DNA of 64,000 nucleotides from Panacagrimonas sp. (GCA_052386745.1 JBQTJW010000007.1:117998-181997), one strand, 5' to 3'; shown: positions 1,917-4,055, numbered from the stretch's first letter. The notes: a model not told the origin generated them from the sequence alone. Numbers and translations: made by a program.

Positions 1917-2999
1917 ATGAGCAACTCATTTGATTCCGATTCGATGGACGATTTTTCCGGCGACGCCGCCGCCGACCTCGCCGAGGGCGCTGCCGACGGT
2001 GACGGCTTCGAAGGGGACGGATTCGACGCAGACGGCTTCGACGACAGCTTCGACGAGGACGGCTTCGATGCCGTTGCCGAGGCTCCGGCTGCCCAGGCCG
2101 GTGATGCCTTCGACGAGGACGGTTTCGACGACGGTGGCGACGATGCCGATGCCTTCGAGATGGCGCTGGCCGACGCGATGGACGCCGAGGACAGCGGCGA
2201 ATTCTTTGGCCGGCTGCTCTCCGGCATCGGGCGGGTCGCGGGCCTGGTGGGCCGCGGCGCGCGCGGTGCGCAGGGACTCGCACGCGGCGTCCAGGGCGTC
2301 GCCCGCGGTGCGCAGGGTGTCGCGCGCACCGCTGCCAACGTGGCCAACCGGGTGGGTCGCGTGGCCGGGCAGGCGGGCCGTGTGGCCGGCCGCTTCGGCG
2401 GGATTGCCCAGCAGGTCGGGCGCGCGGCCGGGCAGGTGGGTCGCCTGGCCAACGCCGGCCAGCAGGGCGGTGCCGGGGCCATGCTGCCGATGCTGATGCA
2501 GATGCTCCAGCAGTACCAGGCGCAGGGCTTCGACGAAATGGACGCCTTCGACGACCTGGCCGACTGGTTCGAGGAGGACGGTGCGGATGCCGCCATTCCG
2601 CTGCTGGCCGGATTCGCCGCGCGCACCCTGGCCCGGCCGCTGATGCGCCAGGCCGGTGCCGCGCTGAGCCAGGGCGCGCGCCAGCGCATCGTGCGCGGCG
2701 CCACCCAGGCCGCGCGCACCCTCGTGCGGCGTGGCGGTCCGCGCGCCGTGCGTGCGCTGCCCCGGGTCACCCAGAGCGTGGCGCGCGTGGCCGCCCGGCG
2801 CCGGCTGCCGGTCCGCACCGCGGTGCAGAGCGCAACCCGCGCCGTGCAGCGCACCGCCGCCCGCGTTGCCGCGGAGCCGCGCCTGGTCCGGCAGCTGGCC
2901 GCGCGCCCCGCGGGTCGCCAGCCGCAGGCGCTGGGGGCCGCCGGCCGTCGCTTCCGCGTCGCCGGCCCGGTGGAGATCACCGTGCGCCAGCTGCGCTGA
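1917..2999 (+). CDS. hypothetical acidic/cationic block protein A (360 aa)
   Basis: AGGAG RBS at 1905-1909 before ATG 1917; host-like codon use; FDEDG repeats, Gly/Arg heptads, second acidic block, Arg-rich C-terminus. Confidence 0.85.
   Translation: MSNSFDSDSMDDFSGDAAADLAEGAADGDGFEGDGFDADGFDDSFDEDGFDAVAEAPAAQAGDAFDEDGFDDGGDDADAFEMALADAMDAEDSGEFFGRLLSGIGRVAGLVGRGARGAQGLARGVQGVARGAQGVARTAANVANRVGRVAGQAGRVAGRFGGIAQQVGRAAGQVGRLANAGQQGGAGAMLPMLMQMLQQYQAQGFDEMDAFDDLADWFEEDGADAAIPLLAGFAARTLARPLMRQAGAALSQGARQRIVRGATQAARTLVRRGGPRAVRALPRVTQSVARVAARRRLPVRTAVQSATRAVQRTAARVAAEPRLVRQLAARPAGRQPQALGAAGRRFRVAGPVEITVRQLR
2262..2450 (+). repeat. nine degenerate 21-bp (heptad) tandem repeats within gene A
   Basis: RGAQGLA RGVQGVA RGAQGVA RTAANVA NRVGRVA GQAGRVA GRFGGIA QQVGRAA GQVGRLA. 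Confidence 0.75.
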
Positions 3000-3044
3000 T
3001 TTCCACCCCTCAACCCATTGATCTACGAACCAGGAGCAAGAGCC

Positions 3045-4055
3045 ATGGATCGCTTCGACACCGATGTGATGGATGACCTGATGGATGCTGCCGACGCCCC
3101 CGCGGGCAGCGCGATGGACGATTTCGACGGCGCCGATGGCTTCGACGATTTCGACGGCGGCGACGAGGGCGATGCCTTCCTCGGTCGCATCATCGGTGGC
3201 CTGGGCAACCTGCTCGGCGGCGCCGGCGCGAATGCCTTCGACGAGGACGGCTTCGACGAAGACGGCTTTGACGACGGCTTCGACGAGGATGGTTTCGACG
3301 CAGCCGCCGACGACTACGATTCCTTTGACGACGCCGTTGCCGACGCGCTCGACGCCGAGGACGGCGACGAGTTCTTCCGTCGCATCGCGCGGCTCGCGCG
3401 CGGCGCGGCGCGCGGCATCGGTCGCGTGGCGGGCACGGTGGGACGGGGCATCGGCCAGGCGGCGCGCGTCGTGGGCCCCATCGCCAGCATGATCCCGCTG
3501 CCGCAGGCGCAGATGATCGGCCGGCTTGCCAATGTCGCAGGCCGCCTGCTGGCGGATGGCGCCGACGAGTTCGAGGCCATCGATGCCCTGGTGGAAGAGT
3601 TCGACGAGGAAGCGCTCGACGCGGCCGCGCCGGTGGTCGCCGGGCTGGCCCTGCGCCGTGCCGTGCCCAACGTCGCGCGCATGCCGCGGCCGGCCCGCCG
3701 GCGCCTGGTGCGCGCGGTATCGCAGGCCACGCGCACGGCGGTGCGTCGCCAGGGCGCTCCCGCTGCCCGCGCCGTGACCCGCGTCGTGCGCACCGCCGCC
3801 CGCGCCGCGCAGGCACGCCGGATCGCCCCGCGCACGCTGCCGCAGGTGGTTCGCCGCGTCACGCAGCAGGTGCTGCAACGCCCGGCCGCGGCACGTCCGC
3901 TCAGCCGTCCGCTGACCCCGCCGGCCCGGCGCGTGGTCCCGCGCCCGCGCGTGGCGGCGGGCGCTGCCCGGCGTGGCCACGTGTGCCGCCATTGCGGCAC
4001 GCACCAGCTGCACTTCCGCGGTCCGGTGCGCATTTCCATCCAGGGCCGTCGCTGA
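3045..4055 (+). CDS. hypothetical acidic/cationic block protein B (336 aa), paralog of A
   Basis: AGGAG RBS at 3032-3036; shares AFDEDGFD, ADAxDAEDxxEFF and C-terminal GPVxIxV/I motifs with A; CxxC near the C-terminus. Confidence 0.85.
   Translation: MDRFDTDVMDDLMDAADAPAGSAMDDFDGADGFDDFDGGDEGDAFLGRIIGGLGNLLGGAGANAFDEDGFDEDGFDDGFDEDGFDAAADDYDSFDDAVADALDAEDGDEFFRRIARLARGAARGIGRVAGTVGRGIGQAARVVGPIASMIPLPQAQMIGRLANVAGRLLADGADEFEAIDALVEEFDEEALDAAAPVVAGLALRRAVPNVARMPRPARRRLVRAVSQATRTAVRRQGAPAARAVTRVVRTAARAAQARRIAPRTLPQVVRRVTQQVLQRPAAARPLSRPLTPPARRVVPRPRVAAGAARRGHVCRHCGTHQLHFRGPVRISIQGRR

Follow-up and report, generated by a model that had tools for sequence, protein, structure and literature searches.

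A lysine-free pair of charge-segregated proteins marks a rare, patchily distributed bacterial operon and may form a self-masked polycationic module

What is the role of two adjacent genes whose proteins alternate between acidic blocks and blocks in which arginine is the only charged residue? The genes, here called A and B, lie at positions 1,917 to 4,055 of a 64,000-nucleotide stretch of Panacagrimonas sp. DNA (GCA_052386745.1 JBQTJW010000007.1:117998-181997; the whole stretch is referred to as the window). An initial annotation of the window likened their products to precursors of antimicrobial peptides (AMPs) and took them for polyproteins of masked membrane-active or nucleic-acid-condensing peptides or, alternatively, for charge-blocky proteins that phase-separate. 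Our analysis indicates that the two products are made in the cytoplasm as full-length proteins of two parts, not as strings of peptides, and that they probably represent the signature module of a so far undescribed operon family that moves by horizontal transfer. We tentatively favour a function as a self-masked polycationic carrier module, with the adjacent gene M encoding the probable unmasking enzyme.

Both genes are real as judged by comparative analysis, since relatives of their products, found also in low-GC genomes, comprise 53 homologs at E ≤ 1e-3 in a collection of 5.8 billion protein clusters and 376 clusters among 1.84 billion representatives. The 53 homologs are all unnamed and free of Pfam domains. 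The 376 clusters were identified with a hidden Markov model (HMM) of the C-terminal domain (285 of them at E ≤ 1e-10) and are nearly all 280-430 amino acids long with a similar layout. The coordinates and reading frames first assigned to A and B hold (Table 1), and an AGGAG box is located about 7-9 nucleotides before the ATG of each gene. B starts at ATG 3045 because its homologs begin with MDRFETDVMDDL; the listed start, TTG 3018, is an over-extension, and the AGGAG box precedes ATG 3045. An 813-amino acid open reading frame (ORF) on the minus strand (1926-4367) and other overlapping frames represent shadow ORFs of this 75%-GC stretch. The proposed paralogy of the two proteins was confirmed by BLASTP (37% identity over 244 columns, E 2e-16). 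In a phylogenetic tree, A-type and B-type proteins form separate well-supported groups and A of the window clusters with cyanobacterial A proteins. Searches of Pfam, NCBIfam, PHROGs and PADLOC gave no match for A or B, PDB sequence and profile searches returned nothing beyond designed coiled coils, and no paper on the A/B family or on the operon was found in the literature.

Charge is strongly segregated along both chains. In agreement with the hand count of the initial annotation, residues 1-96 of A contain 35 Asp/Glu and no Lys/Arg, and residues 97-205 contain 13 Arg and no Asp/Glu. The first acidic residue past this stretch is residue 206, which opens a second acidic block (206-224) followed by an Arg-rich remainder. 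B alternates in the same way and carries one additional small hydrophobic Gly-rich island, FLGRIIGGLGNLLGG, within its acidic part. Lysine is absent from both proteins. Arginine accounts for 12% of A and 14% of B, and the body is otherwise rich in Ala, Val and Leu. None of 5000 shuffled sequences is as strongly segregated by charge (z = 7.5 for A and 8.6 for B; kappa about 0.4). The block junctions highlighted in the initial annotation are present and conserved in an alignment of 93 sequences, with F96 and P228 invariant and D94, E95, D224, A226 and R236 at least 90% conserved. The junction pattern [DE]x0-1[FY][FLIT]..[LIV] occurs 74 times in 33.5 thousand residues of A/B-like proteins and not once in 151 thousand residues of other operon proteins.

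Five conservation peaks are found in the 93-sequence alignment. The first is located at the extreme N-terminus (F-E-x-D-V-M-D-D-L), a motif present within the first 30 amino acids of 69 of 106 A/B-like proteins compared with 4 of 2372 control ORFs. The second, ADALDAEDxDEFFxRL (A residues 80-100), contains the invariant F96 and the third, GxDExxAFDxLxDxxxEDxxDAAxPxxAGxAxR (204-236), the invariant P228. RRxLVRxxxxAARxLVRRxGPxAxRAxPR (255-283) and a C-terminal GPVxIxI represent the fourth and fifth peaks. A Gly/Ala/Arg heptad stretch (A residues 126-185) is the least conserved and most indel-rich part of the family, spanning 16-88 amino acids across homologs. B-type proteins usually bear a CPxCG motif just ahead of the final hairpin.

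Using the same alignment, we modeled A with AlphaFold2 and judged the result on summary confidence values. The model has a mean predicted local distance difference test score (pLDDT) of 73 and a predicted template modeling score of 0.61, with 45% of A below pLDDT 70. Residues 71-115 and 186-330 are predicted with pLDDT above 90 and are all-helical, while residues 1-70 and 126-185 are of low confidence. Helices span residues 73-87, 93-125, 186-203, 207-221, 224-246, 252-273, 275-295, 299-319 and 321-328. F96 and F97 are located in the first turn of helix 93-125, with FFGRL representing the start of this long helix, and the DAA/IP junction forms a helix-turn-helix corner with an N-cap proline. 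In this model, the helix that starts with FFGRL, the second run of acidic residues and what the initial annotation called an Arg-rich "tail" all belong to one confidently predicted helical-repeat body. Foldseek searches with the A model gave nothing significant against the PDB, where the best matches were de novo designed helical repeats (E 0.3), or against viral models. All Foldseek runs, including that of the g365 model discussed below against the PDB, reached best E values of 0.3-0.45 and TM values of at most 0.3. The Gly/Ala/Arg stretch weakly resembles designed antiparallel coiled coils (E 0.0045).

The proposal that A and B are polyprotein precursors which release several peptides (FFGRL..., FLGRI..., FFRRI...), cationic and amphipathic, with antimicrobial or membrane activity is very improbable. 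Its expectation of strong amphipathicity was borne out. FFGRLLSGIGRVAGLVGR (hydrophobic moment 0.57, charge +3) and FFRRIARLARGAARGIGR (0.66, +6) are the most amphipathic 18-mers of their respective proteins, at most 1 in 1000 shuffles reaches such hydrophobic moments, and the values lie within the range of host-defence peptides. In addition, the junction motif is highly family-specific, B holds two junction units and the peptidase gene M adjoins. Eukaryotic host-defence precursors likewise place a charge-matched acidic segment before a cationic amphipathic helix, with a protease presumed to separate the two, but they possess signal peptides, are short and free small peptides at defined sites. 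In contrast, A and B contain no signal peptide or membrane span (Kyte-Doolittle 19-mer maximum of 1.15) and have acidic N-termini (MSNSFDSDSMDDF, MDRFDTDVMDDL), no exporter, transporter, ATPase/NTPase (Walker A) or immunity-like membrane protein was found in the operon, and the cationic part is a predicted folded helical domain of about 230 residues. No separable peptide units are apparent, as the junction lies in helix 93-125 (pLDDT about 95), which forms one predicted domain with residues 186-330. The family shows no repeated flanking processing site and no conserved C-terminal boundary after the junction peptides, and the sequence past their first 12 or so residues is the least conserved and most length-variable part. 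It is defined by the 145-amino acid Arg domain rather than by peptides, and the conserved unit is, as far as the alignments indicate, this Arg-lined domain as a whole, reused whole as the N-terminal module of enzymes. A and B are thus probably not AMP-peptide precursors.

The related idea that the acidic region neutralizes the cationic part holds up to the extent that the acidic block looks like a charge mask, and is not supported in its peptide-precursor setting. Over the 93 homologs, the total net charge is -8.2±4.2, with the head averaging -27.7 and about 10 aromatic residues and the other four segments together contributing approximately +19.6. Homologs with more acidic residues also carry more basic ones (r = 0.74, uncorrected for phylogeny). 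Lysine exclusion is equally marked. At the Microcystis loci (46% GC), A and B together contain no Lys and 79-83 Arg, whereas the remaining operon proteins have K/(K+R) ratios of 0.17-0.24. Within the fusion proteins P0146, P0171 and P0200, described below, the A-like part contains 0-2 Lys and 31-35 Arg compared with a K/(K+R) ratio of about 0.3 in the enzyme part. A mere GC effect is ruled out by the 46%-GC Microcystis genomes and by the contrast within single fusion polypeptides, and by these comparisons the exclusion of lysine from A/B is selected and not compositional. A cyanophycin-like nitrogen-storage role was also ruled out, as Asp and Arg make up only about 21% of A.

A preference for Arg over Lys is typical of RNA-binding arginine-rich motifs and protamines. 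A and B could accordingly be auto-inhibited nucleic-acid binders in which the Arg body condenses or blocks DNA or RNA and the head acts as a nucleic-acid mimic whose removal on a trigger such as phage infection leads to growth arrest. Charge compensation is consistent with this possibility, as are a sporadic spread of the type seen in horizontal gene transfer, a fast-evolving slot and a neighboring regulator, all of which are found in conflict systems. The initial annotation also read g250, the slot protein of the window, as a putative nuclease. However, Arg makes up just 12-14% of the proteins and the body is rich in Ala, Val and Leu, no DNA/RNA-binding family, PDB-sequence or fold match was obtained, PADLOC gave no hits among the operon proteins and the fused domains (OmpA, PG_binding, phospholipase D (PLD)) are envelope-directed, making a nucleic-acid binder distinctly unlikely.

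The genomic context links A and B to a peptidase and a highly conserved marker protein. The gene order A, B, M, g630, slot, g365, g302, slot, DUF4438 recurs at about 80 loci, which belong to Proteobacteria, Cyanobacteria, Planctomycetota and Thermodesulfobacteriota (Syntrophaceae). All 56 loci with sufficient upstream sequence carry A/B-like genes directly ahead of M, with two copies in 42, one in 12 and three in 2 loci. At the sequence level, M shows the hallmarks of gluzincins, an HExxH motif and a downstream Glu within ExxxD, all of them conserved: H191, E192, H195, E234 and D238 are invariant in 48 sequences with a mean column identity of 61%. Searches of Pfam and of PDB sequences gave no match for M. 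Across Betaproteobacteria, Cyanobacteria, Kuenenia, Syntrophaceae and a metagenome-assembled genome (MAG) of Armatimonadota, g365 keeps 62-85% identity, the last of these matches being a 3.3-kb contig with g365 alone. Its AlphaFold2 model gave no fold match in the PDB and a tblastn search with g365 gave none in a phage collection. The only operon proteins matching any family library are the DUF4438 protein and a LuxR-type regulator, both through Pfam. NCBIfam and PADLOC gave no match for any operon protein, PHROGs gave one weak hit of unknown function (g221), and PDB sequence searches with M, g630, g365 and g302 returned no relative.

The operon was not found in the 40 close relatives of the source genome that were searched, occurs in 2 of 400 genomes sampled from its phylum and has tblastn-confirmed relatives in 139 stretches of a species-representative collection. 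It is rare and patchy across phyla and therefore shows, by its distribution, a pattern of horizontal transfer. Its hosts include Microcystis, Nitrosomonas, methanotrophs, Kuenenia and Cupriavidus, in all of which it is sporadic.

A distant variant system is encoded on a megaplasmid of Paraburkholderia sp. PGU19 (NZ_AP023181.1; locus L093, 5793-15249). It contains two A/B-like genes (family HMM E 6e-7 and 2e-4) whose products combine acidic repeats of the types (GELHEL)n and (EGEW)n with EQFFGRI, with Gly-zipper stretches and with a C-domain rich in Arg, together with an M homolog (31% identity, E 2e-53), a g365-like protein (34% identity) and 176- and 652-amino acid genes. The locus continues with Peptidase_M20 and Amidohydro_2 in place of g302 and DUF4438. 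The trio of A/B-like genes, zincin and g365-like gene is, judging from its retention here, an evolutionarily stable core, and because it is kept in a distant variant, A and B appear tied functionally to M and g365 more strongly than by adjacency alone. A DUF4062-NB-ARC-WD40 protein of the STAND (signal transduction ATPases with numerous domains) type (16427-20413 of the same locus) is encoded directly downstream of the variant.

The variant bears on the possibility that a catabolic or processing pathway acts on A and B as its substrates, along a route resembling that of ribosomally synthesized and post-translationally modified peptides (RiPPs) or of storage proteins. M would cut A and B and downstream hydrolases would trim the products, namely DUF4438 in the window and the M20 peptidase and amidohydrolase in the variant. 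Precursor-like tandem paralogs are indeed located directly ahead of a peptidase, the variant operon ends in Peptidase_M20 and Amidohydro_2, and the conservation of DUF4438 is enzyme-like at 44-80% identity. However, the 145-amino acid folded domain is conserved by structural and not by core-peptide logic, its Asp and Arg content would make A a poor nitrogen store, no known RiPP enzyme, exporter or transporter was found in the operon and the PLD and OmpA fusions do not fit. We consider a substrate role quite improbable.

Four long family members are natural fusions. They contain the full acidic head and the Arg body up to about A residue 335, lack the hairpin and continue into enzyme-type domains. 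P0190 consists of an A-like module, an OmpA-like domain and PLD; P0200 and P0146 of an A-like module, an OmpA-like domain and PG_binding_1 (plus an unknown part); and P0171 of an A-like module and a weak calpain-like match. The A-like modules match the family HMM with E values of 1e-37 to 1e-48. P0190 and P0200, the two with readable context, each occupy the slot that directly follows g365, in complete operons which encode ordinary A and B proteins as well. One N-terminal module is thus combined with differing C-terminal toxin-type domains, as in polymorphic toxins, although such fusions are rare (4 of 376 clusters). Another slot protein combines PG_binding_1 with Peptidase_M23 and lacks a signal peptide.

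In the self-masked carrier reading, an acidic, Phe/Tyr-rich disordered head would be joined to a folded body whose surface is lined almost solely with arginine. The head would offset the charge of the body and thereby keep a strong polycation soluble and inert inside the producer. The system, with a core of A/B-like genes, peptidase M, the ~630-amino acid protein and g365 plus a slot of swappable enzymes, would handle the module either alone (A and B) or fused ahead of envelope-attacking enzymes. In the most likely control step, M would remove or displace the acidic head. The bared Arg surface could then meet a polyanionic target, either membrane or envelope lipids or nucleic acid, in the producer or in another cell. 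The envelope is the likelier target because the fused and slot domains are envelope-directed. In a more far-reaching version, the module would be a natural protease-activatable polycationic carrier in which the zincin strips the head and the Arg surface ferries itself and attached or bound enzymes (peptidoglycan hydrolases, PLD, nucleases) into or through a bacterial envelope without a classical secretion machine. This version is unlikely; if true, the operon would be a novel type of system for effector delivery or programmed lysis that has passed horizontally from cyanobacteria to anammox bacteria.

Several observations weigh against a masked carrier. No ATPase, transporter or clear membrane protein is encoded in the operon, which is the largest gap of every delivery-type reading, and searches for a link to a recognized secretion or delivery apparatus (Pfam, NCBIfam, PADLOC, PHROGs, Walker A) found none. 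F96 and F97 lie inside a confidently predicted helix and not in an exposed linker, though a 5-residue break (88-92) precedes it, and AlphaFold2 tends toward high confidence for idealized amphipathic helices. Fusions make up only 4 of 376 clusters, three of them share about 60% module identity and may form one lineage, and none was seen in the slot of the 80 genome loci. Lys-rich, mostly single-copy lineages exist (Kuenenia, Chromatiaceae, Thiodiazotropha, a Synechococcus MAG), the richest with K/(K+R) ratios of 0.5-0.7, and arginine is therefore preferred but not obligatory. The M20 peptidase and amidohydrolase of the variant also fit a catabolic or processing pathway. A possible sharing of the A/B N-terminal tag by slot proteins gave little: among 131 slot ORFs, a strict tag HMM hit a single one, which is a third A/B paralog, and it also hit g250 of the window (7.5 bits; every control ORF scored below 6 bits). 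No slot protein matched the full family HMM. A looser N-terminal acidic-hydrophobic motif, hh[DE][DE]h, occurs in 14 of 45 slot ORFs and 35 of 2372 control ORFs, but was chosen after viewing the sequences and its matches include close relatives. The slot-tag lead is consequently weak.

Charge segregation of this strength, along with an Arg-only body and about 10 aromatic residues per acidic head that could act as multivalent stickers, also raises the possibility that A and B are uncleaved scaffolds or adaptors of an intracellular multi-protein assembly or condensate. Their acidic/aromatic heads and Arg bodies would bind each other, g365, g630 and DUF4438 and recruit tagged cargo enzymes, and M would mature something else or nothing. 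Arg/aromatic sticker patterns drive known condensates. Two paralogs are kept in 42 of 56 loci, the N-terminal tag and C-terminal hairpin resemble docking elements, g365 is as conserved (80%) as expected for a protein with many partners, and the TM1086 crystals contain 5 and 30 chains per entry. On the other hand, neither A nor g365 matched a shell, a filament or another known scaffold fold, the model predicts a fold for more than half of A, and the slot enzymes act on peptidoglycan or lipid, outside the cytoplasm. A scaffold function is the main rival of the carrier reading but rather unlikely.

Known systems share individual features with A and B. Activatable cell-penetrating peptides consist of a polyanion, a protease-cleavable linker, polyarginine and cargo, and Artilysin-type proteins are polycation-endolysin fusions. 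As in these designs, a polyanion would mask an Arg polycation with a metalloprotease as the presumed trigger, and P0190, P0200 and P0146 place the module before peptidoglycan- or lipid-directed domains, similar to Artilysin-type fusions. The engineered systems, however, are man-made, short and unstructured, whereas the A/B polycation is a predicted folded domain. MIX, FIX and the arginine-rich RIX are N-terminal marker domains of type VI effectors that are fused to toxins or stand alone as adaptors. The A-like module likewise occurs alone or ahead of varied toxin-type domains, in its own cluster beside a variable effector slot, but shows no sequence or fold kinship to these domains, no ATPase and no type VI or other known secretion apparatus was found in the operon, and fusions are rare. 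Auto-inhibition by acidic tails is known from HMGB1 and nucleoplasmin/protamine, and CsoS2, EPYC1, McdB and PopZ are charge-blocky condensate scaffolds. All of these resemble A/B in opposite charge blocks, compensation, multivalent short motifs and Arg over Lys, but lack homology to A/B, whose basic part is predicted to be folded. By analogy, A and B can be likened to AMP precursors, activatable polyarginine or polycation-endolysin fusions and MIX/FIX/RIX but are a member of none of them, because no signal peptide or export route, separable peptides or linkage to a secretion apparatus was found. A keyword search of the literature for related toxin systems gave nothing specific.

If masking and unmasking take place, A and B would represent a bacterial counterpart of the masked polyarginine carrier known mainly from protein engineering and a handle on a whole uncharacterized operon family, most of whose proteins fall outside family libraries even though the central protein g365 is about 80% identical across several phyla. 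A categorically new status would rest on the exclusion from known families and systems, the mechanism itself being proposed. Should the masking logic fail, A and B would still be a clean model from nature for designing proteins with charge patterns built specifically on arginine and offer a first functional lead for DUF4438.

Table 1. Features of A and B and genes of the surrounding operon (window coordinates; domain boundaries of A follow the AlphaFold2 model)
Feature	Position	Strand	Basis or remark
Protein A, Lys-free, acidic head and predicted Arg-lined helical body	1917-2999	+	360 amino acids; AGGAG Shine-Dalgarno box 7-8 nucleotides before the ATG
A, acidic, aromatic-rich predicted-disordered head (residues 1-70)	1917-2126	+	pLDDT 44-54
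A, N-terminal short motif FDSDSMDDF	1929-1955	+	conservation peak; family consensus F-E-x-D-V-M-D-D-L
A, helices 73-87 and 93-125	2133-2291	+	most conserved block, ADAxDAEDxDEFFxRL; pLDDT 90-95
A, EFFGRL junction	2199-2216	+	peak hydrophobic moment of the protein
A, Gly/Ala/Arg stretch (residues 126-185)	2292-2471	+	Arg at each 7 residues; variable length; pLDDT 44-52
A, predicted Arg-lined helical-repeat domain (residues 186-330)	2472-2906	+	pLDDT 91-98; second acidic helix 207-221; invariant P228
A, C-terminal beta-hairpin RFRVAGPVEITVR	2946-2984	+	predicted strands 344-348 and 352-356; motif GPVxIxI; G350 and P351 at least 90% conserved
Protein B, Lys-free paralog of A	3045-4055	+	336 amino acids; B clade split from A clade by a starred branch
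B, first junction DAFLGRII, Gly-rich amphipathic island in acidic head	3171-3194	+	recurs in B-type homologs, e.g. DEFLGRLLGGLG
B, second junction DEFFRRIA	3366-3389	+	junction pattern; hydrophobic moment
B, CxxC (CRHC) directly ahead of C-terminal hairpin	3984-3995	+	B-type hallmark (CPxCG)
M, predicted gluzincin-type metallopeptidase	4123-5454	+	about 443 amino acids; HEVAH at 4693-4707, then KEIFAD
g630, conserved N-terminal ~450 amino acids, low-complexity middle, Cys-bearing end	5501-7393	+	comparative
g221, helical protein in position-conserved, fast-evolving slot	7419-8084	+	80 slot ORFs split into numerous clusters, small or with a single member
g365, ultra-conserved operon marker, all-alpha in AlphaFold2 model	8127-9224	+	62-85% identity across phyla; mean column identity 80%
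g302, conserved protein	9270-10178	+	comparative
g250, variable-slot protein, acidic N-terminal ~85 amino acids with FEREVMADL	10163-10915	+	7.5 bits against A/B N-terminal tag HMM
DUF4438 protein (TM1086 family), last structural gene	10912-11919	+	PF14505 and PF20999; PDB 3dcl/3n99, E 1e-67
GerE/LuxR-type regulator, listed ORF	11819-12409	+	PF00196, E 1e-17; helix-turn-helix about 12209-12367

The two slots of the operon differ from the core in their variability. In the slot between g630 and g365 (about 200 amino acids), position is kept and sequence is not; its products are helical proteins, some with a beta-sandwich-like end (Kuenenia, locus L069). Given this divergence, the g221 slot may well encode a sensor or specificity element that is subject to diversifying pressure. 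In the variable slot, most proteins match no assigned family. g250 has no Pfam match and its homologs are found at differing slot positions in three loci. No immunity family was identified beside P0190 or g250: the ORF next after P0190 encodes 47 amino acids and nothing recognizable follows g250. The slot protein at L020:11162-12013 has an N-terminal FDDDFFDDL and a sub-threshold match to Aspzincin_M35 (E 5e-5, 24 bits at a cut-off of 30). Aspzincin_M35 is a lysine-specific peptidase family, a curious occurrence beside Lys-free A and B that is confined to a single locus.

P0171, P0190 and P0200 share a linker domain after the module. This domain of about 130 amino acids, TPRVLTY(T/S)T(R/N)DVID.RI..PAQH.LVRLS.NP, precedes varied C-terminal domains with or without an A-like module. 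Four short soil contigs (L089-L092) identified in a search for the linker encode toxins that start with it and lack the A-like module, and the domain therefore represents an independent toxin cassette. Its sequence context suggests a so far undescribed domain of the pre-toxin or N-terminal toxin-cassette type, and the fusions look like such a cassette captured by an A-like module.

B-type proteins contain a single CPxCG/CxxC knuckle and g630 carries conserved Cys clusters (LDCxxxCxC); an intermolecular zinc site common to both is conceivable. A g365-like domain (24% identity) is present in a Tolypothrix sp. PCC 7712 plasmid locus (NZ_CP063787.1; L094, 7561-18779). On Tolypothrix and Microchaete plasmids this domain is located within a 615-amino acid protein whose gene follows those for an alpha/beta hydrolase, a serine peptidase (S8) and a peptidoglycan-binding protein. 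Such loci may represent a third system type with a different protease.

DUF4438 is one of just two operon genes with a known family, and its likeness to TM1086 concerns a neighbor and not A or B themselves. No paper on DUF4438 was found, and TM1086 appears in the literature only in a crystallization-methods paper (PMC2661377). The TM1086 structures (PDB 3dcl and 3n99) are the only solved relatives of any operon protein, and their 5 and 30 chains per entry hint at a pentamer-based oligomer. The true start of the GerE regulator is probably located past the DUF4438 stop; Cupriavidus necator, Pseudomonas indica and L088 likewise have a GerE gene beside the operon. Plus-strand ORFs beyond 12199 (624, 1097 and 584 amino acids) are shadow frames over a resistance-nodulation-division (RND) efflux operon. 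The RND operon (OEP, AcrB-type pump, HlyD-type adaptor) lies just downstream on the minus strand at 12544-18360, together with a MarR regulator at 18410-18928.

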